Shown here: piece after piece, positions 1-58,674 of the stretch
Layout: every line of letters begins with the position of its first letter
Numbering within the stretch: the stretch's first letter is position 1
DNA from: a bacterium BMS3Abin11
GTDB taxonomy: Bacteria > Pseudomonadota > Gammaproteobacteria > BMS3Bbin11
Length of the DNA stretch: 64,000 nucleotides
Direction: 5' to 3'
Assembly (NCBI GenBank): GCA_002897635.1
Contig: BDTD01000006.1
Coordinates: 6,152 to 70,151, forward strand
Made by a program: the position numbers and the translations under genes
The notes under the pieces: model-generated
What the model was told of the DNA's origin: nothing
What the model saw: the letters and a program-made list of their open reading frames with translations, nothing else
Databases searched by the model: none

Positions 1-1599
1 CTGTTAGCGGTTGAAAGCGTCGATGAACCAACCGAAGTGGTGATTCACGTGAATATGCTTAAGGAAGGCTGGGATGTCACCAATCTCTATACTATTGTGC
101 CATTAAGAGCAGCCAATGCACGAACATTGATTGAACAATCCATTGGCCGTGGATTACGCTTACCTTATGGCAAGCGTACCGGTGTTGAGCCAGTAGACCG
201 TTTAAGTATTATTGCCCATGATCGTTTTCAGGAAATTATCGATGAAGCCAATAACCCGGATAATCCACTGCGTTTAAAAGAATTAATACTAGATGCACCG
301 GAAGATGATACACCGATGACCAGCGTTGATGTGGGTTCAAACCTGGATGCCATCATTAAAGGTGTTACGCCGACAAGCAGTGATGGCACAAGCTATGTCA
401 AGCCTGATGAAGTAAAGGGAATATTTACTGGTGCAACAGAATGTAAGATTGCTGAATTAACGCTTGATGTCATTAATAGCTTCAAGAACAAACCAGACAT
501 TTTAGCTACAACTGATGTTCTCGATGAGAAAGCTGTACAGCAAGTTATTGTTGAAGCGGTAAAAGAAAGACTCACAGAGAAACAACAGTCACTACTGGTT
601 GAGGAAGAGCATGCTGATCTGGCTGAAGTGGTCGCAAAAGCATCTAGTCTGATAAAACAACAAACGATCGATATACCGAGGATTTCAGTCAACCCAAAAG
701 GTGAAGTCAATTATGGTTATAAGTCATTCACTCTGGATGTGTCACAATTAAATCTACAACCCACAGAACGGGATATTGTGATTCAGAATCTGCATACTAA
801 TGAGCAAACCACACTCAATGCACAAGTGGGTATTACCGAATCGCGACCTGAAAATTATATAATTCATCAGTTGGTTGATTTTGATGACATATCCTACGAT
901 GAGCATGCGGATCTTCTTTACGATCTAGCAGGCCAGGCCGTTGAACATTTCAAAAGTTATTTAAACTCAGACGATGAAGTCATCAATGTACTCGATTCAA
1001 ACCGTAGCCTGATTGCGAATGCCATTCATGCGCAAATGATAGAACACTTCTGGGAAGAGGTTTCAGATTACGAGGTTGAAGTTCACGGTGGATTTACCCC
1101 ACTGAAGCCCTGCACTTATACAGCCGCATCGGGGCAGTCCGTATTGAATTACAGGGATACAGTAACGGATAAAAGTAAAATAAAACAAATGCTGTTTGGT
1201 AATTTCTCTAAGTGCCTCTACCCGCTACAGAAATTCGACTCAGATACAGAGAGGCGATTTGCGGTGATTGCTGAACGTGATGGAATTAAATGGTTTAAAC
1301 CGGCCAAAGGCCAGTTCCAACTTTATTATAAAGATGGTATTGATCATCCAGAATATGTGCCTGATTTTATTGTTGAAACTGACGATGGCGTCTTAATGGT
1401 AGAAACAAAAGCAAAAAATGAAATGCAAGACACAAAAGTCCTCGCAAAAGCAGATGCCGCGGTACAGTGGTGCAAAAATGCAAGCGAATACCTGCTTGAA
1501 CATAAAGGAAAAAAATGGAGGTATTTATTAGTGCCGCATGATGATGTAAGTGAACATAATACTTTATCGTCACTTACTAAAAAATATGTAATAAAATAA
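1..1599 (+). CDS. res: Type III restriction enzyme Res subunit, C-terminal part (5' end outside window)
   Basis: Frame 1 is open from nt 1. It carries the helicase motif VI-like QSIGRGLRLPYG and the EGWDV motif. The C-terminal PD-(D/E)xK-like nuclease signature is YVPDFIVET...MVETKAK. Confidence 0.75.
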   Translation: MLAVESVDEPTEVVIHVNMLKEGWDVTNLYTIVPLRAANARTLIEQSIGRGLRLPYGKRTGVEPVDRLSIIAHDRFQEIIDEANNPDNPLRLKELILDAPEDDTPMTSVDVGSNLDAIIKGVTPTSSDGTSYVKPDEVKGIFTGATECKIAELTLDVINSFKNKPDILATTDVLDEKAVQQVIVEAVKERLTEKQQSLLVEEEHADLAEVVAKASSLIKQQTIDIPRISVNPKGEVNYGYKSFTLDVSQLNLQPTERDIVIQNLHTNEQTTLNAQVGITESRPENYIIHQLVDFDDISYDEHADLLYDLAGQAVEHFKSYLNSDDEVINVLDSNRSLIANAIHAQMIEHFWEEVSDYEVEVHGGFTPLKPCTYTAASGQSVLNYRDTVTDKSKIKQMLFGNFSKCLYPLQKFDSDTERRFAVIAERDGIKWFKPAKGQFQLYYKDGIDHPEYVPDFIVETDDGVLMVETKAKNEMQDTKVLAKADAAVQWCKNASEYLLEHKGKKWRYLLVPHDDVSEHNTLSSLTKKYVIK

Positions 1600-1810
1600 C
1601 AAGAGGAATCTTCTTCCGTAATTTATATTTTGAGACATAACCGACTAAAACTAATAATCAGTATATGCTTAGGACTCTACATAGCAGCCATTTCTTGGTC
1701 CGGGAAACTGTCTTAGTTCGGCACCTTATTATACGGAAAAATTTTGATACTCCTAAGTCCACTAGCGGCCAGAATTTGATATTAATAACCTTGGTTGTTA
1801 ATCAAGACTT

Positions 1811-1842
1811 AGGATTACTGTGTGTCAATAGTAATCCTTTTT
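1811..1842 (+). terminator. Hairpin plus T-run in the res / NTPase convergent spacer
   Basis: AGGATTACT (1811-1819) pairs with AGTAATCCT (1830-1838) and is followed by TTTT. It sits about 210 nt after the res stop, so the assignment is uncertain. Confidence 0.45.
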
Positions 1843-1896
1843 ATGAAATGAAAACACAAGACCTAACACAACCGCGCCAGCAATATGTATTGAAAT

Positions 1897-4167
1897 TTAA
1901 TAGTTGAGCAAGTTTGAAAATAGGCTCTTAATCTCATTATCCTTAAATTCATCTTCATCCTTATCGGTGTTCAGAGGAAAACTTGGATTTTGTATAGTAT
2001 GTTCTTCCTCATCCAGCTCACTTATTCTATCTTCCACCATCATCCTAGCATTATCAAAATTGCGAGCTGTAATTTTTGCGAGTGATTCTAGAATATCTAG
2101 ATGTTCAGATAACTCTTCTTCTGTGGTCAAATTGCTTATCACTTCTCCGATATTTTCAAACTCAAAATTCACTATTTGATCAAGCGCTGTTGAAATACTT
2201 TCTGAAACCTGATCCGACATGAATTCATTTACGCTTTCTACGACCGATTCAATTTCATCCGATGGAATTCCTCTATTGATATATCTTAATAATCTGGATT
2301 CAATTGCCGCCAAAATAAGGTTTTTATATTCGTTATCATCACCAATAAAGTTGCTAACTGTCCAGTATAGCTCTGGTAATTCCCTCCCATCGCCCCAAAA
2401 TTCGGAACTAAGAGAACGTGATTCCAAAACTGAGAGCGATTTTTCTATAAAAAGATCATTCTCTGAGTACTCCCACCATTCGAGCAGTAATTCAACTCTT
2501 TCGGAAACTGAGAGATCATCTTTGGAGTAATATATCCTACTTTTTCTAGATTCGTGTTTAACTGCGGGATAAACATCAATTACCTCCGCGAATTCCAAAA
2601 ACTTAGAAGAAAATCCCTTCAGCACATCTTCATGTGATTTAAATAAATCTTTAATATGTCGCCATAATTCATTAGCAAAATCAGCTCGCTTTAGCCCATT
2701 AGGAAGCAAGCTTAGTAATTCTTTATCTATCAAATATGATTTCAAGAAATCTCTTAAAGATGGATTAACGAAATCCACATTATTTTCTGCAATGCAAATA
2801 AATCCTGACTCTAAAGATCGAAGAGAATTCTCAAATTCGTCTGGATTCGTGGGTTGAGAATAATAAGTACAGATGGAACGATGCAGTTCTTGATAATTGG
2901 CTCTAAGTTCCTCTATGTTTTGTCGGTACTTGGAGCCAAAGTATAGCGCTATCAATAAGTTTTTTGATGCTATGTTCAGCGTGCTAAAAGGCTTATTCCA
3001 AATTAGATCAGGGTTCTCTAGCGCCTGATATATGTACTTTGGATAGTCTTTAGGCACAATGGTATCTAAGCAGTCACTAGATACTGATGCAATAACCCTC
3101 GGATTATAGTTTTTGTGGTCTATAATTTTAACAAGCCAATCTCCTTCCAAGAGGTAGGAAAAATGCTCTTGGCTTAAATTAGACGCTGATAGGTGATTGA
3201 AAAGAATGTGTGATTTAATTTTTCTTGTATATGCACCAACATCCAATAGATATTTGGAAAGCTGAAACCTCTGGTCGTCAACGTGATCAGAAATCCGTCT
3301 AGCCTCTTCAAAAATATGCGCGCGGGTGGTTAGAATAAATCTAGCATTTTTAGATTTTCTAACTCTTTTTACAAACACTGATAGAGCGTTTTCATGCTGC
3401 AGGAGTGATTGGCGGTCTAGTTCAATTCGCCCCAAGAAGTCATCAAAGAAAATGACCATAGGTTTTTCATCATCAATCTTCGAAAATCCATCTTCTAGTG
3501 AATTTATTGCATAAAAATGCCAATCGTTATTTAGGTAATGGTATGCCACCATTTTAGCCAGAGTGGTTTTTCCTACTCCAGGCGGACCAGAAACTATAAG
3601 CACTTTTTCTTTTTCTAATTTTTCAATAGCCTCATCAAAGCTCGGATTTTTTACGTAAACCTTTATTTCTTCAAGGATTTCTTCTTTTGTGGCTTTGGTG
3701 AATGCCTCAAGTCCAGATTGCAAAATATGTTCTAAGGCTGCCACGCTTGAAAGCCAAAGCTTCGTATGTGACTTAACAATATCTGGATATTTTCTCAGGG
3801 CTCCTTCAATGTCGTCTCTACCCCATATATCTCCAGAATTGATTATGTAGGGTTTAAATATTTCAATAAGCTGATCGCTTCTAGTAGGCGTGAGTGACTG
3901 CGAAGTAAAAAACAAATATCTCTTTGGGCTAAGCTTTCGTATCTTCTTATACTCTTTTTTTGCCGAGGTTTTAAGATTGGAAAATGTTGACCTCAAATAA
4001 TGTTTACATTGAAGTACGGTAACTCCATCCCCCATTGAATGCCGCCCATCAACACCCCCATCAGGACCTGGGCCAAAAGCAGAAAACCTTGCTCCAATTT
4101 CCTTCTGAGCAATATCCCTACAAAGGTCTTCGAAATCTAAGGGGGATAAGTTCTCTAAATCACTCAT
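1897..4167 (-). CDS. Mrr-like restriction endonuclease domain fused to a P-loop (STAND-like) NTPase with a helical C-terminal region
   Basis: 756-aa ORF. The N-terminus (LSPLDFEDLCRDI...PDGGVDGR...VLQCKHY) resembles the Mrr catalytic core. Walker A GPPGVGKTT and Walker B-like MVIFFDDFLG follow. The remaining ~450 aa are helical with an acidic tail. There is no signal peptide. Confidence 0.7.
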   Translation of the reverse strand: MSDLENLSPLDFEDLCRDIAQKEIGARFSAFGPGPDGGVDGRHSMGDGVTVLQCKHYLRSTFSNLKTSAKKEYKKIRKLSPKRYLFFTSQSLTPTRSDQLIEIFKPYIINSGDIWGRDDIEGALRKYPDIVKSHTKLWLSSVAALEHILQSGLEAFTKATKEEILEEIKVYVKNPSFDEAIEKLEKEKVLIVSGPPGVGKTTLAKMVAYHYLNNDWHFYAINSLEDGFSKIDDEKPMVIFFDDFLGRIELDRQSLLQHENALSVFVKRVRKSKNARFILTTRAHIFEEARRISDHVDDQRFQLSKYLLDVGAYTRKIKSHILFNHLSASNLSQEHFSYLLEGDWLVKIIDHKNYNPRVIASVSSDCLDTIVPKDYPKYIYQALENPDLIWNKPFSTLNIASKNLLIALYFGSKYRQNIEELRANYQELHRSICTYYSQPTNPDEFENSLRSLESGFICIAENNVDFVNPSLRDFLKSYLIDKELLSLLPNGLKRADFANELWRHIKDLFKSHEDVLKGFSSKFLEFAEVIDVYPAVKHESRKSRIYYSKDDLSVSERVELLLEWWEYSENDLFIEKSLSVLESRSLSSEFWGDGRELPELYWTVSNFIGDDNEYKNLILAAIESRLLRYINRGIPSDEIESVVESVNEFMSDQVSESISTALDQIVNFEFENIGEVISNLTTEEELSEHLDILESLAKITARNFDNARMMVEDRISELDEEEHTIQNPSFPLNTDKDEDEFKDNEIKSLFSNLLNY

Positions 4168-5128
4168 AGTCTTGCCAGCATAAATATTTATTCTTATACA
4201 GCATCATATATTTTAGTGAACTTCCGAGTCATAAATCATACATTTTGTGAAACCGAGGGCGACAGGATCAGCTATTTCCCATTGACTTACATCCTCTTTG
4301 GGTCGACAACATACGTTCCGCATTAGATACCAATTGTCCGATTTGATAATATTGTAATTAGATTACCAATATCTTATCAATTTCAGCCTCATAAAGGTCA
4401 AATTTTAGTCTGTTCAAATATTACAAGAGCATCATCTACCTCCATACTCAGATATCTGACGTACTCTCTAGTTTAGTGTACCCATGCAAAAATTGAATTG
4501 AGCGAAGATTATTTATTCGTCGAAGAATCAACAATGCCTTTGTTCATCTCATCGAGTACATGCCATAAGCAACAGCATCAATATGGGACATACTACGATT
4601 TTGATTCTATCGAGAATGGCCAAACTTTAATGACTACTTTGGGTTGCGGGTTTAACTGAAACGATTCACCTCTATTTGAGCATGTCTGCTATTGAGGAAT
4701 CTATTGTATTTTCTGGGTTTTTAATTTTGACTGCTATGTCGATTGCAGCCATCTTTTGTTCTGTCGGATAGTTACAAAAACAGTTATCAAAGTTGTCAGA
4801 TTACATTCTGACTTTTACATTTTAAATGGGTAGGGTCGCAGTGGTTTCGGCAATCTATGGTCGCCGCCCACCACTTTCTTTTCTTGTGATCGTGTCATAA
4901 CACGATCCCGCTTTACCCCCTGCTTAGGGCTACGCGCCCATCAGCGCACTAAAAAGCCTGAACCTTCCAGGCAAAACAAAAAACCGTGTTGTCGTTGCAC
5001 TCCTGCCCGCGCCATTTTTTTGTTTTGGGCTTTCCGTTTGCACACCCGGACTTCGCCAGTCGGACAAGCCGTATTCGTGTTTAAGAAAACGATACGGCTT
5101 TTAACCGATTAATAACGAGGTTCGAAAA

Positions 5129-5614
5129 ATGATTAAAAAAACTGGAAAAGGTACTTTTTGTATAAATGGTTCTTTTACTGTTTCAGAGCTTGCAAACGTA
5201 CTGCTTGAGAATTCAGGTGACTACTTTAATACAGAAGGGCAGCCACTAACTAGCCCAGATTCGACAAGAGAATATTTAAAGGCGGTTTTATCACACCATG
5301 AAAGTGAGGTTTTCGGGGTGATATTTATGGATAATCGGCACAGGGTTCAGGCTTTTGAAATTCTTTTTTATGGAACTATAGACGGAGCATCAGTCCACCC
5401 AAGAGAAGTTGTAAAGCGTGCAATTGCAAATAATTCGGCGGCGGTAATATTAACCCACAATCACCCGTCTGGTATTCCTGAGCCGAGCCAGGCAGATATT
5501 GCCCTGACCAGCAGGCTTAAAGATGCGCTTGCATTGATCGATATACGGGTTTTGGATCATTTTATAGTTGGTGAGGCTGAGCCGTTGAGCTTTTCAGAGC
5601 GTGGGCTGATGTGA
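5129..5614 (+). CDS. radC: RadC-like JAB/MPN domain protein
   Basis: Carries the JAMM motif [24 protein letters not shown] and the C-terminal LDHFIVG typical of the RadC family. AGG lies 8 nt upstream of the ATG. Confidence 0.85.
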
Positions 5615-5682: not shown

Positions 5683-6876
5683 TCAACGTATTGGCTTTGT
5701 ATTCTTTAGCTCATCCAGGTAATTAGACCATTTCTGCATCATTTCGCGACGGGCGGCCAGGTGCTGTGTCCTATTGTATGCGCGTCCTAGAGGGTCACGA
5801 ACTGCATGTGCTAATTGATGCTCGATGATGTCAGGTGGGAATCCGAGCTGCTCGTCGAGCAGGGTTCTAGCCATGGCCCGGAAACCATGGCCGGTCATCT
5901 TATCTTTTGTAAATCCAAGCCGACGCAAGGCAGCGTTGATCGTGTTTTCGCTAATTGGTTTTTGTTTGGTGCGTAGAGATGGAAATACGTATCCACTCAT
6001 GCCAGACACCGCTTGTATATCCTCTAACAAGGTTACGGCTTGTGAAGACAAAGGGACGATATGTGGCAGCCTTCTTTTCATCTTGTTTGCAGGGATCTCC
6101 CAGGTGGCGGATGCAAGATCGATTTCCTCCCATTCGGCGTGCCGAAGTTCGCCAGGGCGAACAAAGACGAGTGGAGCCAGTCGTAGCGCTGTGCGTGTGA
6201 CGATATCACCTTGGTAGCCATCGATTGCGCGAAGCAATTCCCCCACCTTCTTCGGCTCAGTGATGGCGGCATGGTGTGTAACCCGGGCGGGTGGCAGGGC
6301 GCCGGTTAAATCGCGGGCCGGGTTGGATTCTAGGCGACCCGTCTGAACGGTATAGCGCATGATCTGGTTGATAATCGATAATACTCGGTGAGCGGTTTCG
6401 ATGGCGCCTCGTTCTTCGACACGCCTAAGTACACTGAGGACATCGACGGGGTTAATATCGGTGACGCTACGTTTACCGAGCCAGGGGAGGGCGTCCTTTT
6501 CCAGCGTTCGCCAAAGACGCTTTGCATGTCCCGGTGTCCATTTGTCCTTGAAACGTGTATGCCATTCCTTCGCTATCACCGCGAAGGTTTCACTGGCATT
6601 GGAGCTTTCCGTTCGCAGCACTTTTCGGGTGATCGATGGGTCGATACCTTTGCCCAGCATCAAGCGAGCCTCGTCACGGTTGAATCTGGCCTGTCGGAGG
6701 CTGGTATCCGGAAATGTGCCCATGCTCAGTTCTTTGGTTTTTCCGCCGAGCTTGTAACGGAACCGCCACCATTTCTTATCGTTAGGCCGAATGATGAGAA
6801 ACAGCCCGTTTCCATCGTGCATCTTATACGGTTTTTCTTTCGGCCTAGCCGCCTTGATGCTTGCTGCTGTTAGCAA
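5683..6876 (-). CDS. int: P4-type tyrosine integrase (TTG start)
   Basis: The N-terminal DUF4102-like segment is KPYKMHDGNGLFLIIRPNDKKWWRFRYKLGGK. Catalytic signatures are RPGELRHAEW, HGFRAMARTLL and LGRAYNR. The gene sits directly 3' of ssrA. Confidence 0.9.
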   Translation of the reverse strand: MLTAASIKAARPKEKPYKMHDGNGLFLIIRPNDKKWWRFRYKLGGKTKELSMGTFPDTSLRQARFNRDEARLMLGKGIDPSITRKVLRTESSNASETFAVIAKEWHTRFKDKWTPGHAKRLWRTLEKDALPWLGKRSVTDINPVDVLSVLRRVEERGAIETAHRVLSIINQIMRYTVQTGRLESNPARDLTGALPPARVTHHAAITEPKKVGELLRAIDGYQGDIVTRTALRLAPLVFVRPGELRHAEWEEIDLASATWEIPANKMKRRLPHIVPLSSQAVTLLEDIQAVSGMSGYVFPSLRTKQKPISENTINAALRRLGFTKDKMTGHGFRAMARTLLDEQLGFPPDIIEHQLAHAVRDPLGRAYNRTQHLAARREMMQKWSNYLDELKNTKPIR

Positions 6877-7060: not shown

Positions 7061-7418
7061 TGGTGGAGGCGGGGAGAATCGAACTCCCGTCCACAAGTCC
7101 TCTACACTCCAGATCTACATGCTTAGTTTGCGCATTTAATTTAACTGTACGCTATCCGGCAAACGGGAAAAACGCAAAGCGATTCTGCTTAAAGTTTAAC
7201 GACTCCGCCACAGACATGCTTCGTCGCGATACTGTGTAAGATGACCTTTCGAATCCCCGCCCACAATCAAGCAAAGGTGAAAGGACTAGCCGGTATTAGG
7301 CGGCTAGTGCGTAGTTGTCGTTGTTGGCAACTATTGTTGTGCAGTTGGATTTACGAGGGGATCTGCTCCTCGGCATGCACTGAAGGCTTCGCTACCCGTG
7401 TCGAAACCGGTCGCCCCC
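7061..7418 (-). ncRNA. ssrA: tmRNA
   Basis: The minus strand begins GGGGGCGACCGGTTTCGACACGGG and ends GGACGGGAGTTCGATTCTCCCCGCCTCCACCA (tRNA-like T-arm and acceptor with CCA). The tag frame at 7296-7328 is GCC AAC AAC GAC AAC TAC GCA CTA GCC GCC TAA, giving ANNDNYALAA. smpB is adjacent. Confidence 0.93.
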
Positions 7419-11780: not shown

Positions 11781-13448
11781 TTAGCCGTTAGCCTGTTTCA
11801 GCATCTCAACCGCATGCGCACGCGTCTGCTCAGTGATATCAATACCTCCCATCATACGGGCAATTTCTTCCACTCTTTGTTTTTCTTCCAGGGAGTCTAT
11901 GCAGGCTTCTACCGGATCACCGGATTTGCTGATCAATATTTGTTGATGGGCATTGGCCGCCACCTGTGCCAGGTGGGTGATACACAGTACCTGTCGAACG
12001 GTCCCCAGTTTTGCCAGCTGCTGACCGACGATTTCTGCTACCCGACCACCGATGCCTACATCAATTTCGTCGAAAATCAGTGTCGAAATGGTGGATGATT
12101 CCATCACACAGACTTGAAGTGCCAGGGCGATACGCGACAATTCACCACCTGAGGCGACTTTGTTCAGGGGCTGTGGGGATTGTCCGGGGTTTGCAGCGAC
12201 CAGATATTCGATTTTATCCAGCCCATGACGTCTGGGATTGGCCAGCTCAGTACCGCTTAGTTTAATGACAAAACTCCCACCTTCCATGCCCAGTTTCTGC
12301 ATGCGAGCGGTGACTTCTTCAGAAAGCCTGATGGCTGTCTGCCTGCGTCGCTGAGAAACCTTTTTTGCCTGATCCTGGTATTTTGTAAAATGTTCTGCGA
12401 GTTCTTTTTCCAGTTCAGTTATCCGTTTTTCACCGGATTCCAGATCGTGTAATTGTTGCTTCAGGTTGCCTAGTTGGGCCGATAGATCGCCAGGGTTTAT
12501 GCGGTGTTTGCGCGCAAGGTCATGAATACTTCCCATCCGTTGGTTGATCCAGTCCATACGTTGTGGGTTGCTGTCCATCTGATCGAGATATTGTCTCAGC
12601 AGAATACTGGCCTCATCGATATGGATGCTGGCATTCAGCAGCAGCTGATTGATATCAGACAGTGCCGGGTCGAATCGTTCGAGCTGCTGCAGACCGTTAA
12701 TCACCTTATTCAGCTGTTGCTCTATTGCTGCATTGTCATCATTACTCAGGCGAAGAAGATTTTCATTAATACCGGTTATCAGATCACTGGCATTGGCCAG
12801 GCGGCGGTGTTCTTCTTCAAGCGCTTCGATTTCATGTTCTTCCAGTGCCAGTTGTTCTAGTTCATTGGTTTGATAGCGCAATAATTCGATCTGGTCTTCA
12901 CCCTTGTCGTCAACACTGCGTAGCTGATCAAGGTTCTGCTGGCAATTCTGAATAGCTTCATAATGCCTGGCAAGTAAATCAAGTGCCGATTGGTGATCGG
13001 TGATGGAGTCCAGTATCTCACGCTGGTCATCAAGCCGCAGCAGCGATTGATGTTCATGCTGGCCATGAACATCAACCAGCAGGTCGCCTAGTTGTCTTAG
13101 CTGTTGCATGGTGACGGGTCGGCCATTGATGAATCCGCGGCTAGGCCCGCTGTGGGGTAAAATTCGGCGTAAGATACATTCCTGCTCAGCATACAGTAAC
13201 TGTTCTTTAAGCCAGACAGTGGCTTCAGTGCAGGTACTGAGATCAAAAGCGGCGATGATCTCGGCATGATCTTCCCCGTGCCGGATGACGTTACTGGACG
13301 TGCGTCCACCGAGCACCAGATTCAGTGCATCGATGAGAATCGATTTACCGGCTCCGGTTTCACCGGTGATTGCCGTCATGCCTTCGCACAGACCAAGTTC
13401 TGCTTCACGTACAATCACAAAATTTCTAAGATACAGAGATGAAAGCAT
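11781..13448 (-). CDS. recN: DNA repair protein RecN
   Basis: Walker A GETGAGKSILIDAL, a long coiled-coil middle, and the SMC signature ASGGELSRIALAL. Confidence 0.93.
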   Translation of the reverse strand: MLSSLYLRNFVIVREAELGLCEGMTAITGETGAGKSILIDALNLVLGGRTSSNVIRHGEDHAEIIAAFDLSTCTEATVWLKEQLLYAEQECILRRILPHSGPSRGFINGRPVTMQQLRQLGDLLVDVHGQHEHQSLLRLDDQREILDSITDHQSALDLLARHYEAIQNCQQNLDQLRSVDDKGEDQIELLRYQTNELEQLALEEHEIEALEEEHRRLANASDLITGINENLLRLSNDDNAAIEQQLNKVINGLQQLERFDPALSDINQLLLNASIHIDEASILLRQYLDQMDSNPQRMDWINQRMGSIHDLARKHRINPGDLSAQLGNLKQQLHDLESGEKRITELEKELAEHFTKYQDQAKKVSQRRRQTAIRLSEEVTARMQKLGMEGGSFVIKLSGTELANPRRHGLDKIEYLVAANPGQSPQPLNKVASGGELSRIALALQVCVMESSTISTLIFDEIDVGIGGRVAEIVGQQLAKLGTVRQVLCITHLAQVAANAHQQILISKSGDPVEACIDSLEEKQRVEEIARMMGGIDITEQTRAHAVEMLKQANG

Positions 13449-31694: not shown

Positions 31695-31774
<80 letters not shown>

Positions 31775-36349: not shown

Positions 36350-37504
36350 ATGAAATCGTTTTTTTCGAGAATCTTATTTACCCTGATAACTATGATGTTC
36401 CTTTCGCAGCCCACATTGGCGGATGACGATGATCTGGCAGTCAATGAAGTTGAGGGAAGCCTTTCTGTAATGGTGCTTGGTTCTGGTGGACCAATAGCAA
36501 CCGCAGAAGGACGTGCAAGTGCGGGTTATCTAATCTTTACCGATGGCAAACCACGAATTCTGATGGATGTCGGTGGGGGGACTTTTCAGCGTTTAGCTAA
36601 GAGTGGTACGAACATTAAGGACTTAGACATTATCCTGCTAAGCCATTTACATGCTGATCATACAGGTGATTTAACATCTGTGGTGAAGACCATGTACTTC
36701 CATAACAACCTGGCGCGAGCTCAGGCTGCAAAGCAGGGCATAATACTTCCTGGCCGCACTGCACCAATCAATATCTATGGCCCTGCATCATCAGCGATAC
36801 CAAGAGGTGCAGGTTCAAAAGGTGTCTATTATCCTAAACCTGATGGAAGTGATGGCCCATTAGTATATCCTGCAACCACAGACTATGTTCATGATCACTA
36901 TTCAATTCCAAAAGGTGGTGTAGAACGTTACCTAAAGGCTTTTGTCGCAGCGATCAGTGATGATGATGGCCCTCTGGGGCCTGGTGGGAGTGTAAGTAAC
37001 TTCGCCTATACGGCAAATGATTTGTCGTCGCGAGTACCAGGTGCTGAGATAGAAACTGTTCTTGACGAAGACGGTTTAGTTATCAAGGCGATAGCTGTTG
37101 ATCATGGCCCTGTACCAGCTGTTGCCTTCAGGGTGGAATACAAGGGGCACAGTATTGTTTATTCCGGTGATACTGGTACAAAAGGTATGGGACCAAATCA
37201 TTTAGGCCGGGGTAATATGGCTAAAATCTCGCAGAATGCAGATATCCTGATCTATGACACAGCAGTGATGGAGAGGGGAGATGCACCAGCAAACCCTCTC
37301 TTTCACATCTTACACACACAACCATCGCTGATTGCAGGTGTTGCGATAGAGGCGAATGTAAAGAAACTGGTCTTATCTCATTTGACACCAGTTACCAGTC
37401 CACGGCTGGATGCTGTGAAAGCTATCATCGAGGGGGCTGGTTTCAAAGGTAAAATAATAAGCGCAAAAGACCTTAAAGTTTATAATCTGGATGATGACGA
37501 CTAA
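36350..37504 (+). CDS. Secreted MBL-fold metallo-hydrolase
   Basis: Signal peptide MKSFFSRILFTLITMMFLSQPTLA. It has the HxHxDH motif LSHLHADHTGDL. Both the mature N-terminus and the C-terminus carry poly-Asp. Confidence 0.75.
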   Translation: MKSFFSRILFTLITMMFLSQPTLADDDDLAVNEVEGSLSVMVLGSGGPIATAEGRASAGYLIFTDGKPRILMDVGGGTFQRLAKSGTNIKDLDIILLSHLHADHTGDLTSVVKTMYFHNNLARAQAAKQGIILPGRTAPINIYGPASSAIPRGAGSKGVYYPKPDGSDGPLVYPATTDYVHDHYSIPKGGVERYLKAFVAAISDDDGPLGPGGSVSNFAYTANDLSSRVPGAEIETVLDEDGLVIKAIAVDHGPVPAVAFRVEYKGHSIVYSGDTGTKGMGPNHLGRGNMAKISQNADILIYDTAVMERGDAPANPLFHILHTQPSLIAGVAIEANVKKLVLSHLTPVTSPRLDAVKAIIEGAGFKGKIISAKDLKVYNLDDDD

Positions 37505-37566
37505 ACTCGCCGGATTATATGATGGAGATGCCCAGGTAGGACATACAGAGGAAGACGTGCCAATAG

Positions 37567-37640
37567 CACGTCTATGTGTATAATGTGCAGTAATTCAATT
37601 AATTGGTTTGACTATACCGTCATAGTTTTCAGGTACAATC
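37567..37640 (+). repeat. 74-nt repeat, copy 1 (upstream of the hemerythrin-like gene)
   Basis: 65 of 74 positions are identical to 39958-40031, in the same orientation. Confidence 0.8.
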
Positions 37641-37653
37641 CAATCGAGTCTGA
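37639..37653. repeat. 15-nt direct repeat TCCAATCGAGTCTGA (copy 2)
   Basis: Identical to 36149-36163. The pair brackets the MBL hydrolase gene. Confidence 0.7.
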
Positions 37654-37681
37654 CTCCACAGGTATACAGGTTTAAGGACAA

Positions 37682-38128
37682 ATGAAAATAGAGAAGGAGT
37701 TGTTAGTACTTGCTCGAGAGCACCATGTATCACTAGTTTTAGCGAATCGAGTAATAAATACAGTAAAGTCAAAAAATCAATCCGAGATTAACTCTTTATG
37801 TCTAAATATCAACAAATATTTTGCGAAATATTTTAAAGATCATTTTGAGACTGAAGAAACATTGATTCTTTATCCGCTGATGAATACTGATAAAAATAGT
37901 AAAGATATTTGTAAGCGTTTAATTAAAGAACATGATGATTTAATTTATCTATCATCTTCTTTGGCAGATAAACCTGAATTATTATTAGAGTTCGGCCAAT
38001 TGTTGAAGCTGCATACCAGAGCTGAGGATAGAGAAATATTCCCAAACATAAATGCATTATCAAAAAAACAATTGCAAGCTATAGCCGAATCAAGTGAAAA
38101 ACATGAGCGTATTGAAGAGTTCTTTTGA
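37682..38128 (+). CDS. Hemerythrin-like (HHE cation-binding) domain protein
   Basis: Spaced His/Glu helices: LAREHHVSL, FKDHFETEETLILYPL, LIKEHDDL and HTRAEDREIFP. Confidence 0.6.
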   Translation: MKIEKELLVLAREHHVSLVLANRVINTVKSKNQSEINSLCLNINKYFAKYFKDHFETEETLILYPLMNTDKNSKDICKRLIKEHDDLIYLSSSLADKPELLLEFGQLLKLHTRAEDREIFPNINALSKKQLQAIAESSEKHERIEEFF

Positions 38129-38491
38129 TGAATAAATCCATTTGTGAAACCAGAAGAGCTCAGATGGCCATATCTAGAACAGGGGGTCAGGTGTATTTTG
38201 CAACGTAAAATACACTTGCTGCCTTTTTCATTCCTGGTTTACCTCATACCACACAGAAACCATCGTAGTATTTCCGATTCCTGTCAAATTAAATAGTGAT
38301 GTTGAACAAGCTGAACTATCAGGGATTTTAGTTGTCGATTATCAAGTAAGGAGATGTCAAGGGACTTCTGATTACAAAAATGAAAGGGAGCAGTATATGA
38401 GAAATCGAAGGTGATATATGAGTAATGAATTTGATAAGAATTATATTTTCGATTTTTCTACAACATTTATTCTACAACCAAGAGGAATAGT

Positions 38492-39046
38492 ATGATGAAA
38501 ATAATATTGCCATTAACAATATTGCTAATATCTTTTTCTGCCCACGCCGCTGATAAAAGTATGATGAAAGCACCATTTGGAAATCCTGAGGATGTAACTT
38601 ATGCCAGTACACTTTGGAATAAAATGAATGAAAGTGGTTTAAACAGGATGCCAGCAACACTTTATGTTGGTGGACCACCGCATGGGAAAGTAAGAGAAGT
38701 ATTAGAGGGAAAAATAAATGGTAAACGAGTAATAGTGAAACGAAATTATGGCGGTAAGGGCGTTAGCGTTAAAACTGTTACGGACAATCGTTCTAAATAT
38801 TTAAAAGCCATAACTATTATGGCAAAACGAGAAGCAGGTTATGATTCAGATAACAATGACTGGTTCTGGGCTAAATATAAACCTAATGGTGAACTGTTTA
38901 CCAATCCCAAAGGTATGTTGTTAGCTGGGCGAGTAGCAAAGGGTATGAAGGTGGGTTGTATAGCATGTCATAAGTCGGCGTCTGGAAATGACCTGGTATT
39001 CATTCATAATAAAGAAGCCAATGCTGAGGTGACAATAGTAAAATAG
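38492..39046 (+). CDS. Cytochrome P460-like periplasmic haem protein
   Basis: Signal peptide MMKIILPLTILLISFSAHA. NNDWFWAKYKPNGEL...LAGRVAKG..VGCIACHKSA carries a single C-terminal CxxCH, as in the P460 family. Confidence 0.65.
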   Translation: MMKIILPLTILLISFSAHAADKSMMKAPFGNPEDVTYASTLWNKMNESGLNRMPATLYVGGPPHGKVREVLEGKINGKRVIVKRNYGGKGVSVKTVTDNRSKYLKAITIMAKREAGYDSDNNDWFWAKYKPNGELFTNPKGMLLAGRVAKGMKVGCIACHKSASGNDLVFIHNKEANAEVTIVK

Positions 39047-51983: not shown

Positions 51984-52065
51984 AATCTATTCAGTTGGTT
52001 TTGCGATATCTATAAGGAGCGGAAAGGTAACAATTTTGGGCGTTTTATACCAGTTTTGTAATTCT

Positions 52066-52158
52066 AAAGTTCCAAGATCCAAGCACCAGGTTCCAAGTTC
52101 GAGGCTTCAAATTTGGAATTTCAGGCTTGGAACCTGGATATTTAGACTTGGAACTTTT
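52066..52158. repeat. Heptamer-repeat palindrome of the GTTCCAA type
   Basis: aagttccaagatccaagcaccaggttccaag faces cttggaacctggatatttagacttggaactt. It uses the same heptamer as 45252-45450. Confidence 0.75.
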
Positions 52159-52163
52159 CCCCT

Positions 52164-52328
52164 CTACCCCAACAATATAATAATAACCCCATACCGCTTA
52201 ATCCAATCGTACAAACTCTTTGTCGCCGTTCCTAATTTCTCGGCTACATCTGACACCGAATAGCCTCGATCGGTAACCTGTTTGACAGCTTCAACCTTGA
52301 ACTCCTCTGTAAAACGCTTCCCACTCAT
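52164..52328 (-). pseudogene. Relic of an IS3-family transposase OrfA (HTH part only)
   Basis: The minus strand encodes MSGKRFTEEFKVEAVKQVTDRGYSVSDVAEKLGTATKSLYDWIKRYG, then ends at the heptamer palindrome. No OrfB follows. Confidence 0.6.
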
Positions 52329-52474
52329 AACAACCTCCTGTAAGCTTTATATTAACGCTTCGAGGTGTCTACAGATACGGGGGCGATTCAGTTCAGATGG
52401 GTAGGTACCTATCAAAAACTCTAGAAAATAGCTTTAATTATTAATAAAGCTACCTTTTACACAATACTTTGGTA

Positions 52475-53116
52475 TCAGTTAACCAAACCAGATTTTTTCA
52501 AATCTTTCAGGATGATACTTGATAACTCATTTATTACTTTCTGAAAAGAACCAGGGTTAAAAGATTCTGTGTCTGCTGCCCAGACTAATTTCTCGGTACT
52601 TACTGCAAATAACCTGGTTTCAATTTTTATTATTGTATCTGTTGTCGTATATGCAGACTGATACACTGGCGTATACATATTCCGGTATGATCTTCCATAA
52701 TAATCATAAAAACCATTGTAGGCGCCATATCCCATGGTTGGTACCCAATCAACAGAAGCAGGCACACGGCGTTCTTTCTTATCAATAGCTGTTAAGCTGG
52801 CTATAAGCACTGAATCTGCATTTGCTTTTTTGACAAATGGTAATAATTTCGCTTTATCATCAATATTTTCGATATTAGGCATAAGTGTATAACTGGAGAT
52901 TCCTACTACATTTCCCCTGGTGATATTTTGAGAGAATTTATCTTCGAAAGCACGTCTTTTTATATCATCCTTTAACATTCCAATCACAAGGATTCTCTGG
53001 AACTTCGGTCCCTTATATGCAGGATCACTCCAATGATTAACAAATTCTGTCGTTGTACATCCGGAGAATAATATTGTGGTGAATAGAAGCACAAACAGTC
53101 TAGCTACAATGCGCAT
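52475..53116 (-). CDS. Lipoprotein of unknown function
   Basis: Lipobox LFTTILFSGC. No catalytic motif recognised. Confidence 0.6.
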   Translation of the reverse strand: MRIVARLFVLLFTTILFSGCTTTEFVNHWSDPAYKGPKFQRILVIGMLKDDIKRRAFEDKFSQNITRGNVVGISSYTLMPNIENIDDKAKLLPFVKKANADSVLIASLTAIDKKERRVPASVDWVPTMGYGAYNGFYDYYGRSYRNMYTPVYQSAYTTTDTIIKIETRLFAVSTEKLVWAADTESFNPGSFQKVINELSSIILKDLKKSGLVN

Positions 53117-53187
53117 AAATAATCTCTCATGAAATTTATTATCGGGTGAGTTTGGAAACTATATTTAATAATCATACAGAGTATAAA

Positions 53188-53354
53188 CTAGGGAACCTCT
53201 GATCAATTTATGAACTCGTATCTTACGCCTAAAATATCCAGTTTTTTCGTTGCAAACCTTCGCAATAGCTAGCTATTACGTGCGATTTACGCCTCAAACC
53301 TGAATATTTTAGATCGCAATCTACTTCGTCCAGAATTAATCAGAGGTTCCCTAG
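53188..53354. mobile_element. MITE, intact copy with CTAG target duplication
   Basis: CTAG-GGAACCTCTGAT...ATCAGAGGTTCC-CTAG. The core is CGCAATAGCTAGCTATTACG. Confidence 0.85.
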
Positions 53355-53485
53355 TATGTTGAAGGTCGATTGAACATGATAATAATGCTTAATTAACTTC
53401 AAATAGTTAGAAATTCCCATATATATTAACACATACTTTTTGCAAGTATATTTAAATATTTTGTGATATTTTTTGAGTATTTTGA

Positions 53486-54436
53486 TCAACATTTTTTCCA
53501 GTACTGGATTATTGTTGCGCCCTTATTTGTTTTGGAAGTCAATAAGTACTCGAAAAGAGCAAGAGGAAATACAAGCCCTGCAATCGGTAGCCATAGAAAA
53601 AGTTTCCACTTTTGCTGTTGAGCACTACTATGCATTAATTTATAGAGCCTGTTCGGCTTCCCAGGAAAGAACCGATTAAGAGCGCTCTGTAGGAACCCAA
53701 ATATATTTTGCTCAAAAGATCGGTCGCTTTGCTCCAAAAGTTCCAGCTCAAACTCGCTGCAAATTGTTATAAGATTTTCTGGAGTGAAATGCCAGAAGTG
53801 TCTAGGTATATCAAGGTGAAACCAGTTTGCCCCAAACCAGCGCGCCTGTCGACTGGCAAAATTTGGTGTTGCCAGGGCAAGAACTGCGCCTGTTTTCATC
53901 AGACCTACGGCCTGTTGTAGCGTCTTCTTTGGCTCAGGTAAATGTTCAAGAACATGCCATATCACTACTAAATTAAAGCTGTTCGTTGGAAGTAGCTGGT
54001 TAGATAAATTACCAAGGTGGTAGCTATTGCCATGATGGTGTACAGGAACAGGAAAATCATGCCGCTCAAGGCCATGACAATCGCAGTTTCTTTTGGCAAG
54101 CTCATCCAGCAGAACGCCTCGTCCACAACCTATATCTAACACACGGAAGTTATTTTCAGCACTGTCATTTAGAAAGTGCAATAAATATTTTGCTCGATTG
54201 CGGGCACCTGTACGAGTCAGGTATTCAAGCCAGGGATGAAACTTGTTTTTCCTGTTACCGTAGTACGAATTTGTATAATACCTTGACAGCAGATTATCAG
54301 GTACATGCGGGTTGGTTCGAACTAAGCCACATCTACAGCATCGTAAAAGCCTGAACGTGGCAATGCCATTATCAAAGTCTTTTGCGTTGTAGAGAAAATC
54401 TGCAGAAGATGTCTCACAAATTGGACAGTTTTTCAC
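53486..54436 (-). CDS. Class I SAM-dependent methyltransferase with N-terminal Cys4 zinc-ribbon
   Basis: Carries CPICE...CCRCG, motif I VLDIGCGRGVLL, and WHVLEHLPEP. Confidence 0.8.
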   Translation of the reverse strand: MKNCPICETSSADFLYNAKDFDNGIATFRLLRCCRCGLVRTNPHVPDNLLSRYYTNSYYGNRKNKFHPWLEYLTRTGARNRAKYLLHFLNDSAENNFRVLDIGCGRGVLLDELAKRNCDCHGLERHDFPVPVHHHGNSYHLGNLSNQLLPTNSFNLVVIWHVLEHLPEPKKTLQQAVGLMKTGAVLALATPNFASRQARWFGANWFHLDIPRHFWHFTPENLITICSEFELELLEQSDRSFEQNIFGFLQSALNRFFPGKPNRLYKLMHSSAQQQKWKLFLWLPIAGLVFPLALFEYLLTSKTNKGATIIQYWKKC

Positions 54437-55519: not shown

Positions 55520-57634
55520 TCATTTGCTGCTATCTCGAAATATACTGTTAAAAATCAGTTGGTACCGCTCTGATACGTCGTCTGGAGCATTATCTATTCC
55601 TCGCTGTATTAATCTTTCAGCCTCATCCAGCATACCCAGACGGTAGTAGAGACGCACCAGGTTTATTCTTGCATTAAAGTTATCTCTTCCAGTACTAAGG
55701 GTTTTCTGATAGGTGGTTATTGCTTTCGCGTAATTCTCCTGCTGTGAATAAATTAGAGCAATATGATTTAATACATTTCCATCATCAGGTCTTATGGCAT
55801 TCGCCTGAAGGAATGCCTGTAATGCTGATGCAATATCCCCATTTTTCAAGTTTGCAAGACCTAGATTATACAGAATTCCAAAGCTGTCTGGTTGAAGTTG
55901 ATCAGCTTTTGTTAGTAATTTTATTGCTAACTGATATTCGCCAGTACGTAGCAAATACAGGCCAAACTCGCCCTGAGCTACTACGTTATCAGGGAATTTA
56001 GCTGAATTATCATATAAATGCTTTCTTTTGGAAGAAAGTACTTCTCGCAGCATGGACACTCTATTTTTAATTTTATCTTCATAGAACAGGCTACTCCATT
56101 TTAATCGGTAATCATCAATTTTTAGATAGTATGAGATCGCTGCCATATATTGATCTAATTGTTCATAAGTGCTGGCAATATTAAAAAATACGTGCCCTTG
56201 AACAAGATCAGCTTTGATGCTTACCAGTTTTTCAGCACGCAGAAAGTGCTTAAGTGCCTGGGTATGGTTTTTCTTTTGTGCCGCAATCTCACCTGCCAGC
56301 AGCTCACGAAGATAGGTTGGCATTTTTTCAAAGTGAGGTAATTGTGACACGTCATCATAATTCCTGTCTGACATCAGGCTGGTAAAGTATTGATATTCAG
56401 TGAGTGCCGGATTTACTTTATATGCCGATTCCCAGAGGCTTTGGTCAGATCTCCAGTCGTTACCGCGCACAATAACTGTGATTAGCCAGGTGCATAAAAG
56501 TAATGCTATAAAATATCGGAGGATTACTGATTTAGATGTAAAGGTAAAAAAGGATGATGCTGTTAATGCAAGTCCAAATAGAGCAGGGAATATATAACGT
56601 TCTGCAATCATAGGTGATGTTGGGAATATATTAGACACCGGACCAAGTGCAATAAAAAACCAGCTAAAACCAATAAATGGAAGTATCGATTTTTGACGAA
56701 ATTTCCATAACAATAAAAAGCTGGAAAGGTAAGCAACCAATAGTAGGGTAACTGCCAGTAAACCAGAATAATTTTTTACCAGGGAAGCCTCATCAAGCAC
56801 AATGCTAAGTGGCCATGGAACAACAAAACGGCTTAAATAATAGGCAGGGATGAGAATAACTCGTGCCAGTGAAATTTCTGGATTGAGAATACCCAATCGC
56901 GTCATATCAGGTTGAAGCATACCTTTGTCGGATGCAATTTGCAGATGTAGTAAGATGACAACTGCATTTATAACAAACATGAATGCCAGCAATTTCCACT
57001 GGGTCTTCTTCAGTGCCTTATCACCAGGTAAAGTAAGAAGTATTACCAATAAGGCCAGTGGGAAAAAAACGGCACTGGCTTTAGAGAACAGGGCTAGAGA
57101 AAATGTAAGTAGAGATAATAAATTGCGACCAGAAAGAAACCCTGCTAGTGACAACAACAAAAATAGCATCGCAAGAATATTATTTCTTGCACTTATAAAA
57201 TAAACGGCTTCACTATTCAGTGGATGTAGAGCAAATATTGCAGCCGTCATGAGAGCAAGCTGTTCTGCTCGGCCTGATCCTGCACATTGTGCAAGTTGCC
57301 TGCTTGTCACAAATACTAGCCAAACTGTAATCAGGTAATACAACAGGCTCGAAAGATGAAAACCGAAAGGATTTTTTCCCCAAAGCCAGGCGTCAATGAC
57401 AAGAGAGAAATCTCGTACTGGGAGATATTCAAACTTATTGACAGGAATAGAAACAATTTTGAGCAGGTCTGCACCCCAGTATGCATTTACTGGAAGTAAT
57501 AAAATGTTGTCATCAAAAACAAACCCATTAAGCAGGCCGGGTAAATATGCAAATCCTGTAACAAGCAGGAGAATACCAATTTTCGATGAACTTGATAGAG
57601 TTAGAAGGTGCGTGTTTAATGCTTTTAGAGTCAT
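55520..57634 (-). CDS. GT-C fold glycosyltransferase (PMT/ArnT/TMTC-like membrane domain) fused to C-terminal TPR repeats
   Basis: About 11 TM segments with the first-loop acidic motif NGFVFDDN. The C-terminal ~270 aa are TPR-like (ALKHFLRAEKL, YNLGLANLKNGDIASALQAFLQANAIRPDD and others). Confidence 0.75.
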   Translation of the reverse strand: MTLKALNTHLLTLSSSSKIGILLLVTGFAYLPGLLNGFVFDDNILLLPVNAYWGADLLKIVSIPVNKFEYLPVRDFSLVIDAWLWGKNPFGFHLSSLLYYLITVWLVFVTSRQLAQCAGSGRAEQLALMTAAIFALHPLNSEAVYFISARNNILAMLFLLLSLAGFLSGRNLLSLLTFSLALFSKASAVFFPLALLVILLTLPGDKALKKTQWKLLAFMFVINAVVILLHLQIASDKGMLQPDMTRLGILNPEISLARVILIPAYYLSRFVVPWPLSIVLDEASLVKNYSGLLAVTLLLVAYLSSFLLLWKFRQKSILPFIGFSWFFIALGPVSNIFPTSPMIAERYIFPALFGLALTASSFFTFTSKSVILRYFIALLLCTWLITVIVRGNDWRSDQSLWESAYKVNPALTEYQYFTSLMSDRNYDDVSQLPHFEKMPTYLRELLAGEIAAQKKNHTQALKHFLRAEKLVSIKADLVQGHVFFNIASTYEQLDQYMAAISYYLKIDDYRLKWSSLFYEDKIKNRVSMLREVLSSKRKHLYDNSAKFPDNVVAQGEFGLYLLRTGEYQLAIKLLTKADQLQPDSFGILYNLGLANLKNGDIASALQAFLQANAIRPDDGNVLNHIALIYSQQENYAKAITTYQKTLSTGRDNFNARINLVRLYYRLGMLDEAERLIQRGIDNAPDDVSERYQLIFNSIFRDSSK

Positions 57635-57871
57635 AACTCAAAACAAACAAATAGATTCTTAATTTATAAAACAACTCGCACATATCAATGATAGTTACAG
57701 AGCTTATTGAATAGCTGTAAATTTATGCTTGCATATATGTTTTGAGTTATTATTAAAGATCATGAATTTTCAGCTGTTTATTTCAATGAATAAATACAAA
57801 AATTGAGATACTGACATTGACTGGGTAAAAATATATAAAAATTGCTACACAAATAGATAATACAGGAATCT

Positions 57872-58636
57872 ATGCTTAACGGAAAACACCTGGTTGTAGT
57901 TATGCCGGCCTACAATGCTGCGCAAACCTTGAAGCAGACATGGGATGAGATACCCCACGATTACGTCGATGACGTTATTCTTGTTGATGACTGTTCGGTA
58001 GATACAACGGTGGAAGTTGCTGAAAATCTTGGCATAACAACCATTATACAAGCGGCAAATAGAGGTTATGGGGCAAATCAAAAGCGTTGTTATAAAGAGG
58101 CGCTACGGTTAGGTGCAGATGTCATCATTATGCTCCACCCGGATTATCAATATTCACCTCGTTTGATTCTAACGATGGCAACACTGGTCTTATCCGGGCA
58201 TTACGATGTTGCACTTGGATCCAGAATACTCGGTGGTCATAGTCTGAGCAATGGCATGCCGTTTTATAAATATTTTTCTAACCGTGTACTGACGCTGATC
58301 CAGAATTTATCTCTGGGGGCAAAGTTGTCGGAATATCACACGGGCTACCGCGCCTTTAGTCGTGAAGTTCTGGAGACTTTACCCTTGGAAGAGAATTCTG
58401 ATGATTTTGTGTTTGATAATGAGATGTTATTGCAGTGTCTGTTTTTTAACTTTCAAATTGGTGAAATAAGCTGCCCAACGCGATATTTTCCAACGTCCTC
58501 AAATATTAGTTTTAGACGCTCTGTTAAGTATGGTTTTGGTGTGCTTATCACCACCAGCCGTTATCTAGTTAGTAAATATTTAAATGTTAATGTGGCAATA
58601 TTTAATCAAAATGGTCGTCGGTTAAATAAAGATTAA
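57872..58636 (+). CDS. GT2 family glycosyltransferase (polyprenol-phosphate sugar synthase, DPM1/ArnC-like)
   Basis: Carries VVMPAYNAAQTL, ILVDDCSVDTT and MLHPDYQY. It is divergent from the GT-C/TPR gene. Confidence 0.85.
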   Translation: MLNGKHLVVVMPAYNAAQTLKQTWDEIPHDYVDDVILVDDCSVDTTVEVAENLGITTIIQAANRGYGANQKRCYKEALRLGADVIIMLHPDYQYSPRLILTMATLVLSGHYDVALGSRILGGHSLSNGMPFYKYFSNRVLTLIQNLSLGAKLSEYHTGYRAFSREVLETLPLEENSDDFVFDNEMLLQCLFFNFQIGEISCPTRYFPTSSNISFRRSVKYGFGVLITTSRYLVSKYLNVNVAIFNQNGRRLNKD

Positions 58637-58674
58637 AAACTGCCTAACCTTAAAAGTTGAATTCATGTTATATT

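Follow-up and report, generated by a model that had tools for sequence, protein, structure and literature searches.

The gene described here lies near the start of a 64,000-nucleotide stretch of DNA (the window) from the gammaproteobacterium BMS3Abin11 (GenBank assembly GCA_002897635.1, contig BDTD01000006.1, positions 6,152 to 70,151 of the forward strand), where it shares an island linked to the tmRNA gene ssrA with a restriction subunit, a RadC-like gene and a tyrosine integrase (Table 1). It is complete, begins with ATG and encodes a protein of 756 amino acids (aa), in which an N-terminal Mrr-type nuclease head is followed by an nSTAND3 nucleotide-binding domain and a variable, acidic C-terminal domain. 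The PADLOC model PDC-S73 covers the protein from end to end, aligning profile positions 5-750 of 752 with residues 3-751 (E 1.3e-130, 435.5 bits). The family thus already figures among the listed defence candidates, so that the window gene is a credible candidate but not one of a new kind.

Architecture, conservation and family of the protein

The conservation figures were taken from an alignment of 38 homologues that are 52-79% identical to the window protein. The same alignment served for an AlphaFold2 (AF2) model, which has a mean predicted local distance difference test score (pLDDT) of 76.4 and resolves into five parts. The mean column identity is 0.72-0.82 for the parts within residues 1-480 and 0.51-0.55 for the C-terminal ones, the helical domain 481-719 having 0.53-0.55. 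The motif GPDGGVDGR...VLQCKHY occupies residues 33-57 of the nuclease head, and Pfam Mrr_cat is matched on residues 4-59 with 25.5 bits against a cut-off of 21, while more distant relatives cover up to positions 3-109 of the 115 of this profile, that is, nearly the whole of it, so that the head is confirmed as a complete Mrr-type PD-(D/E)xK domain. The residues D36, G38, D40, G41, R42, Q53, K55 and H56 are invariant, and D36, D40 and Q53-x-K55 among them are predicted from this pattern to form the catalytic D...D...QxK motif. The core of the head follows the order alpha-beta-beta-beta-alpha-beta in the AF2 model, and the head is basic (isoelectric point, pI, 9.2).

Beyond a linker modelled with low confidence at residues 140-162, the nucleotide-binding domain (NBD) is matched by Pfam nSTAND3 (PF20720) at residues 171-327 over profile positions 1-154 of 155 (E 1.8e-48). 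In its Walker A motif, G194, P196, G197, V198, G199, K200 and T202 are invariant and P195 and T201 are conserved in at least 90%, in Walker B the invariant residues are F241, D242 and D243, and the strand RFILTTR at residues 276-282 retains R276, F277, L279, T280 and R282 throughout. Behind the NBD, the model places helices at about 315-452, a beta hairpin at 457-466 and a helix at 469-478, this region including the conserved segment FVNPSLRDFL (residues 466-475) with invariant N468, P469, S470 and D473. The composition of a STAND module is thus present, namely an nSTAND3 NBD with intact Walker A and B motifs and, after it, the helical domain (HD) and the winged-helix domain (WHD).

The C-terminal 276 aa (residues 481-756) are helical and represent the least conserved part of the protein. 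This domain is strongly acidic (net charge -26, pI 4.45), and the acidic C-terminus together with the basic head would suit a head that binds DNA and a tail that senses a protein. A beta-hairpin insert at residues 536-549 interrupts the helical domain 481-719, and the tail 720-756 has a net charge of -7, pLDDT below 50 at residues 720-738 and a short terminal helix of the pattern F..D....SLFSNL, in which F741, F750 and L753 are invariant. When modelled alone, the C-terminal domain gave a pLDDT of 83.5 and a predicted template-modelling score (pTM) of 0.74, and took the form of an antiparallel helical solenoid with the beta-hairpin insert; the C-termini diversify within the family. The homologue P0157 shares 41% identity with the window protein over residues 3-517 and lacks any similarity to it in the last ~240 residues, and many relatives from metagenomes and plasmids align just to about residue 505-530. 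The C-termini of the relatives carry no Pfam domain, while Mrr_cat and nSTAND3 are always retained. A constant chassis on which the terminal cassette can be exchanged is the pattern expected for the sensor of an immune receptor.

The search of the full-length AF2 model against the Protein Data Bank (PDB) placed EcAvs4 first (8dgf, E 7.7e-10, 862 aligned columns), and further matches were EfAvs5, a Sir2-STAND protein (9jap, E 7.8e-8), SAMD9 as the fourth-best (9zjs, E 1.8e-6) and the AVAST5 filament (9nc9, E 3.3e-5), with NOD2 and the Dark apoptosome ranking next; in a viral structure library, the best match was an NLR-like protein. Sequence and profile searches of the PDB chains returned generic P-loop matches only. 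The original prediction, made from the letters of the DNA and its reading frames, had described a cytoplasmic protein of 756 aa with an N-terminal Mrr-type core, Walker A GPPGVGKTT and Walker B-like VIFFDD, and had compared its layout (nuclease effector, STAND NTPase, helical C-terminus) with that of Avs proteins. The reading frame is as described, and the protein is taken as cytoplasmic because it has no hydrophobic segment (the maximal Kyte-Doolittle mean over 19 residues is 0.96); the nuclease core and both Walker motifs were borne out by the profiles and the invariant residues given above, and the layout by EcAvs4, EfAvs5 and AVAST5 standing among the top folds. As an observation the prediction was thus confirmed, and its interpretation was borne out in part. 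As for the last ~450 aa, described as helical with an acidic tail, both properties were confirmed, but this region is better divided into the helical and winged-helix part (328-480) and the part 481-756.

The head is also recognised by two other PADLOC models, Aga_REase-TIR-PNTD1-PNTD2 over residues 3-145 (E 2e-36) and Aga_TIR-PNTD1-PNTD2 over residues 3-193 (positions 4-193 of 639, E 2e-52), the names of which we infer to stand for 'Argonaute-associated'. The second match (window 4167-3589) exceeds the Mrr core and extends to the start of the NTPase domain. These alignments suggest that the head and the linker may be common, as one unit, to Argonaute-associated effectors. The fusion effectors Mrr-TIR-APAZ occur in SPARTA systems (PMC9097488) and, taken with the matches to the Aga models, support the reading of this module as a portable effector. 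A query of the N-terminal 163 residues retrieved nothing beyond truncated pieces of the family itself, and no other architecture with the Mrr head.

The PADLOC phage defence candidates (PDCs) are unpublished and mostly unvalidated (PMC12988326); they were found through guilt-by-embedding (PMC12988326; PMC11514479), and their 'S' series comprises single-gene candidates (PMC12988326). The single-gene character of PDC-S73 agrees with the findings here, as no open reading frame (ORF) of at least 60 aa lies upstream of the gene in the window and no neighbouring gene is conserved across the lineages in 26 loci. The nearest database relative of the window protein is 79% identical, and no feature was found that separates this protein from the PDC-S73 family. 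In clusters of 50% identity, the profile search gave 4,669 matches at E <= 1e-3 and 2,446 at E <= 1e-30; the best 150 were mostly of ~745-780 aa, the shorter ones matching a part of the profile and looking truncated, and relatives at only 28-45% identity retained the same length. No NCBIfam model exceeded its cut-off for the window protein, and the source annotations of the homologues are generic (restriction endonuclease, ATP-binding protein, nSTAND3 domain-containing NTPase).

Genomic setting in the window and among homologues

The gene is convergent with the restriction subunit, which extends past the start of the window, and their common location in an ssrA-linked island with a Type III Res gene, which had been predicted, is upheld by the REase_III match, by the integrase directly adjoining the 3' end of ssrA, and by the low GC content of positions 1-5000 (36-41% versus ~47% in the flanking core). 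The RadC-like protein is a typical cargo of integrative elements. No repeat of the 3' end of ssrA (att-type) occurs anywhere inside the window, and the far boundary of the island is outside it; exact-match scans with segments of the tmRNA found no related genome and, hence, no empty ssrA site for comparison.

Table 1. Annotated features at the locus, with window coordinates, strand and the basis of assignment
Feature	Coordinates	Strand	Basis
Helicase-type (Type III-like) restriction subunit, C-terminal part	1..1599 (ORF 37..1599)	+	PADLOC REase_III, E 2.4e-111
Mrr_cat-nSTAND3-sensor protein, full gene	1897..4167	-	ORF; PDC-S73 match over whole length
Disordered acidic tail and conserved short helix, residues 720-756	1900..2010	-	pLDDT; conservation
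Variable acidic helical domain, predicted sensor, residues 481-719	2011..2727	-	Model, charge, variability
Helical and winged-helix domains of the STAND module, residues 328-480	2728..3186	-	AF2; conservation
nSTAND3 nucleotide-binding domain, residues 171-327	3187..3657	-	Pfam PF20720
Walker B VIFFDD, residues 238-243	3439..3456	-	Conservation
Walker A GPPGVGKTT, residues 194-202	3562..3588	-	Conservation
Helical linker between nuclease and NTPase, residues 111-170	3658..3837	-	AF2; column identity 0.80
Mrr-type PD-(D/E)xK nuclease head, predicted effector, residues 1-110	3838..4167	-	Pfam Mrr_cat; AF2
Predicted catalytic motif codons D36...K55 (GPDGGVDGR...QCK)	4003..4062	-	Invariance in 38 homologues
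RadC-like JAB protein	5129..5614	+	Pfam RadC, E 8e-44
P4-type tyrosine integrase (Arm-DNA-bind_3, Phage_int_M, Phage_integrase)	5683..6876	-	Pfam
tmRNA (ssrA), island integration site	7061..7418	-	ARAGORN; Rfam RF00023, 238.8 bits

The loci of homologues were collected with an alignment query, which gave 35 loci with 5 true relatives (generic Walker A matches swamping the rest), and with a single-protein query, which gave 13 loci. In 11-12 of the 21 lineages, counted without a matched genomic background, a defence gene or a candidate for one lies no more than three genes away, these neighbours being AriA/OLD-like, LmuB-like, Ppl-like, PDC-S06 (twice), PDC-S02, a Type II methyltransferase and REase_III. 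The context of mobile elements and defence genes, foreseen for the window in the original prediction, holds for both the window and the homologues, within the limits of that count. Among 138 neighbours in a bulk scan, the ATPases of the OLD/GajA/AriA type, SMC-like proteins, transposases and ResIII helicases lead. The family members are present on 57 plasmids, of which 31 are conjugative, and in 3 phage records; homologues were also found in integrative and conjugative elements (ICEs) with TraG/TraC/TraU and a relaxase, and RES-Xre and RelB-ParE toxin-antitoxin pairs and ArdA are among their neighbours. The copy of Aeromonas represents a solo chromosomal insertion.

The orthologue of Vibrio crassostreae and V. 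cyclitrophicus (64% identity) follows an AriA/OLD-like gene of 597 aa at a distance of 9 bp, and in these species the AriA/OLD-like and Mrr-nSTAND3 pair occupies at least 4 different chromosomal or ICE sites, which indicates that it moves as a two-gene cassette. The Seongchinamella copy resides in an ICE behind an OLD-Toprim gene (86 bp upstream) and a RES-Xre pair, and an OLD-like homologue lies near the copy of locus L047. The AriA/OLD-like ABC-ATPases(-Toprim) of 597-610 aa were located at L001:8198-9991 (+), L002, L003, L006 and L044:8083-9915, the gene of L003 being broken into two ORFs. The neighbours in V. campbellii are Ppl-like and AAA_15/21, and the LmuB-like neighbour belongs to Roseibium and Mesorhizobium. 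One locus holds PDC-S02 and one a Type II methyltransferase beside the family member.

Several further associations were observed at these loci. PDC-S06 directly follows the family member in a Rhodobacter metagenome-assembled genome (MAG; L048:12288-14555, -) and on a Rhizobium plasmid (L052:12290-14710, +), with E-values of 1e-270 and 2e-85, respectively, in these unrelated lineages, and may form with it a recurrent pairing of two candidate systems. A VspR-like regulator with a ResIII-type helicase (weak PbeA-like PADLOC matches) was found next to the gene in two Vibrio species (L003:5400-7303, L042:12427-14333) and may be another mobile defence-related pair. Beside the Pseudohongiella homologue, a helicase-nuclease of 1,559 aa (DUF4011/AAA_11/AAA_12/MTES_1575/DUF3320; L045:3642-8321, -) is encoded in the company of an integrase fragment and a PIN gene, and this looks like another small defence islet. 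Paralogy was considered for the neighbouring ORFs of similar size (755-768 aa) at L047, L048 and L049 and was rejected, as none of them is homologous, the one at L048 being PDC-S06.

In the window itself, the gap of 960 bp from the start of the gene to RadC (4168-5128) contains no ORF of at least 60 aa and no Rfam match; a promoter-like site (4380-4351, -) and a terminator-like hairpin (4972-4956, -) were noted there, and the gap may represent the remains of a gene or have a regulatory or leader role. The tag peptide of the tmRNA is VANNDNYALAA. Further downstream, the low-GC stretches 37001-39000, 52001-54000 and 56001-59000 (0.37-0.39 versus ~0.47) suggest additional horizontally acquired segments, a tRNA-Pro(cgg) gene is situated at 31698-31774, and RecN (11781-13448) shows 76-97% identity only to proteins from MAGs and metagenomes and ~50% to Acidiferrobacterales, which places the host in an uncultured lineage of Gammaproteobacteria with no close counterpart among the species-representative genomes searched.

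Proposed mode of action and its alternatives

The gene is likely to encode an NLR-like (STAND) sensor-effector of the PDC-S73 family that acts alone against phages and would bring about abortive infection through the cleavage of DNA by its Mrr domain. In the resting cell, the protein would be an autoinhibited, nucleotide-bound monomer. During infection, the acidic C-terminal domain (481-719) would bind a cue, most likely a phage protein, and the binding would free the nSTAND3 NBD-HD-WHD module for the exchange or binding of a nucleoside triphosphate (NTP) and for subsequent oligomerisation, by which the basic N-terminal Mrr-type PD-(D/E)xK domains would be gathered. The gathered nucleases would then cut DNA without sequence specificity, with the result that phage replication would be halted and the cell lost. 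The domain composition, the conserved catalytic residues of the nuclease and the NTPase, the fold likeness to Avs4, Avs5 and SAMD9, the diversifying C-terminus, the lack of a conserved partner and the setting among mobile elements and defence genes were observed here; what triggers the protein, its oligomerisation, the DNA it would cut and the abortive end of the infection are drawn by analogy from Avs1-5.

A number of points weigh against this interpretation. PDC-S73 is an unpublished and experimentally unvalidated candidate, and the literature search found no publication naming it or the accession numbers of the homologues. The count of lineages with defence neighbours stands without a matched genomic background, and about 9 of the 21 lineages lack a neighbour recognisable by PADLOC. 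In the AF2 model, the catalytic loop 31-40 is of low confidence. Many STAND winged-helix domains carry a conserved His, and the position equivalent to it is presumably occupied here by Asn468. The C-terminal domain is a predicted sensor solely by virtue of its position and variability, and the fold search of its isolated model against solved structures gave a best E of 0.028, with no significant match and no known sensor, the remaining top matches being mostly designed helical repeats and 14-3-3 proteins. The global template-modelling (TM) scores to Avs4 and Avs5 are low (0.22-0.26), as is expected for flexible multidomain proteins, and the fold matches to these two, accordingly, reflect similarity at the level of domains. 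No Avs model was present among the 15 PADLOC families matched at E <= 1, and no Avs chain among the PDB chains matched by the family profile at E <= 0.01.

Three other explanations were weighed, all less well supported than the Avs-like sensor model. It is unlikely that the protein is an NTP-dependent and modification-dependent (Type IV-like) restriction enzyme, with modified foreign DNA cut directly by the Mrr nuclease, with the P-loop serving as a motor or assembly switch as in McrBC and with neither sensing of phage proteins nor suicide involved. The Mrr_cat catalytic core, the label 'restriction endonuclease' given to homologues by several sources and the adjoining restriction subunit would all suit such an enzyme, and the family profile weakly matches the P-loop of McrB (6hz4, E 0.0064, 41 residues); however, this match does not extend beyond the Walker A region, and the NTPase is a full-profile nSTAND3 domain and not a McrB-type GTPase. 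The folds of the whole protein, moreover, resemble Avs4, Avs5, SAMD9 and NOD2, there is no DNA-binding domain outside the nuclease among the Pfam matches listed, and neither a McrC-like nor another conserved partner was found. The acidic C-terminus is unsuited to DNA binding, and its swapping between close relatives is what a ligand sensor would show.

Mobile elements (the ssrA island, ICEs and plasmids) carry the gene in nearly all cases, and toxin-antitoxin pairs and ArdA are among its neighbours, from which a module of addiction or of competition between elements might be supposed. A toxic nuclease restrained by its own NTPase domain would then serve the stability of the element that carries it, or keep rival elements out, and defence against phages would not be its primary role. 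Such a module is improbable, given that no antitoxin-like partner is conserved, that solo chromosomal insertions such as that of Aeromonas exist, and that the architecture and the folds are those of trigger-activated immune STANDs; genuine defence genes are also typically mobile, and the two roles are compatible. Least probable is that the gene works as a pair with an ABC-ATPase-Toprim gene of the OLD/AriA type, the window copy being an orphan, since the arrangement seen in Vibrio and Seongchinamella, with the OLD-like homologue near a further copy, is countered by the absence of this partner from the window and from most lineages and by the single-gene 'S' status of the family in PADLOC, and, OLD/AriA-like genes being also independent defence genes (P2 Old, the PARIS/Gabija families), the adjacency may just be that of two defence genes travelling together.

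With the antiphage sensor-effector as the preferred interpretation, the window gene is a plausible defence gene, correctly spotted and already flagged by PADLOC. As the family is abundant and is spread by ICEs, plasmids and ssrA islands among marine Gammaproteobacteria and Alphaproteobacteria, it probably contributes to the turnover of phage resistance in the populations of Vibrio and Rhodobacterales. Should the activity be validated, a compact receptor of 756 aa with a small exchangeable sensor would be attractive for mapping how short sensors recognise phage cues.

Comparison with Avs proteins and related systems

Among the characterised proteins, Avs5 shares the nSTAND3 clade with the window protein, as PaAvs5 carries the Pfam nSTAND3 domain (10.1101/2025.07.08.663546). 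For immunity, PaAvs5 needs its ATPase and its C-terminal domain, and a phage protein acts as the trigger (10.1101/2025.07.08.663546). Both are single genes with the order of effector, NTPase and helical C-terminal domain, and the Avs5 chains in the PDB count 769 and 833 residues versus 756 aa here. The original prediction had held that Avs proteins are usually about twice as long and had, therefore, considered a minimal or undescribed branch; these chain lengths contradict the first statement in the case of Avs5, and the second is not supported either, the size being not exceptional and the family catalogued. In contrast, the effector of Avs5 is a Sir2 NADase, which depletes NAD+, while a Mrr nuclease with predicted DNA cleavage takes its place here. 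Membership in Avs5 was rejected, as the N-terminus is Mrr_cat, SIR2 was absent from the best 25 of 40 Pfam matches and from the PADLOC matches, and the family showed no match to Avs5 profiles or solved Avs5 chains at the level of PADLOC and HMMER.

The N-terminal nuclease of EcAvs4 is reportedly also of the Mrr type, and the likeness to Avs4 consists in this head and in the logic by which trigger binding leads to oligomerisation and nuclease activation, the latter being predicted for the window protein. However, EcAvs4 with its 1,534-1,541 residues is about twice as long, its large sensor recognises the portal whereas the C-terminal domain here has 276 aa and is unrelated to it in the fold search, and its NTPase belongs to another clade, with no PADLOC or sequence-profile match between the family and Avs4. 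Membership in Avs4 or Avs2, which have a large TPR-like sensor for the portal or the terminase, was rejected on the length (756 aa versus ~1,500), on the absence of any TPR family among the best 25 of 40 Pfam matches and on the C-terminal fold, for which no significant match was found.

Avs6 with a PNP head and Avs9 with an AlbA_2 head have been described as SAMD9-like STANDs by Legrand et al. 2025 (PMC12680541). They resemble the window protein as modular proteins of an effector, a STAND module and a helical part, and SAMD9 is among the fold matches of its model, but none of them has a Mrr head, and Avs9 and SAMD9 are far larger (>1,300 aligned residues). Membership in Avs6 and Avs9 was likewise rejected. 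A SAMD9-like C-terminal sensor was also considered and rejected, the isolated model having no match at E <= 0.001 and 9jap, 9nc9 and 9zjs falling outside its best 50. The Mrr-TIR-APAZ effectors of SPARTA share just the homologous head, the window protein being without TIR, APAZ and an Argonaute partner.

In the recent survey of Lee et al. 2026, 589 STAND clades were distinguished, 198 of them defence-associated, and Avs7-24 were named (PMC12803255). Only sensors of at least 400 aa were clustered in that work (PMC12803255), and a sensor of 276 aa therefore remains outside its clustering. It is possible, though doubtful, that the Mrr-nSTAND3 family constitutes a distinct 'small-sensor' class of antiviral STANDs, with an acidic cassette of 240-280 aa that has no solved structural relative. 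Such a small sensor may target cues other than the large conserved structural proteins of phages recognised by Avs1-21, and small basic DNA-binding proteins, anti-defence proteins or the perturbation of host factors may be among them.

Mechanistically, the family is closest to Avs5, by the clade of the NTPase and the size, and to Avs4, by the kind of the nuclease head. If validated, it would represent the nuclease-armed counterpart of Avs5 on the same nSTAND3 chassis and would show clearly how, in nature, the effectors of NLR-like immunity in bacteria have been swapped, with Mrr taking its place beside Sir2, PNP and AlbA_2.

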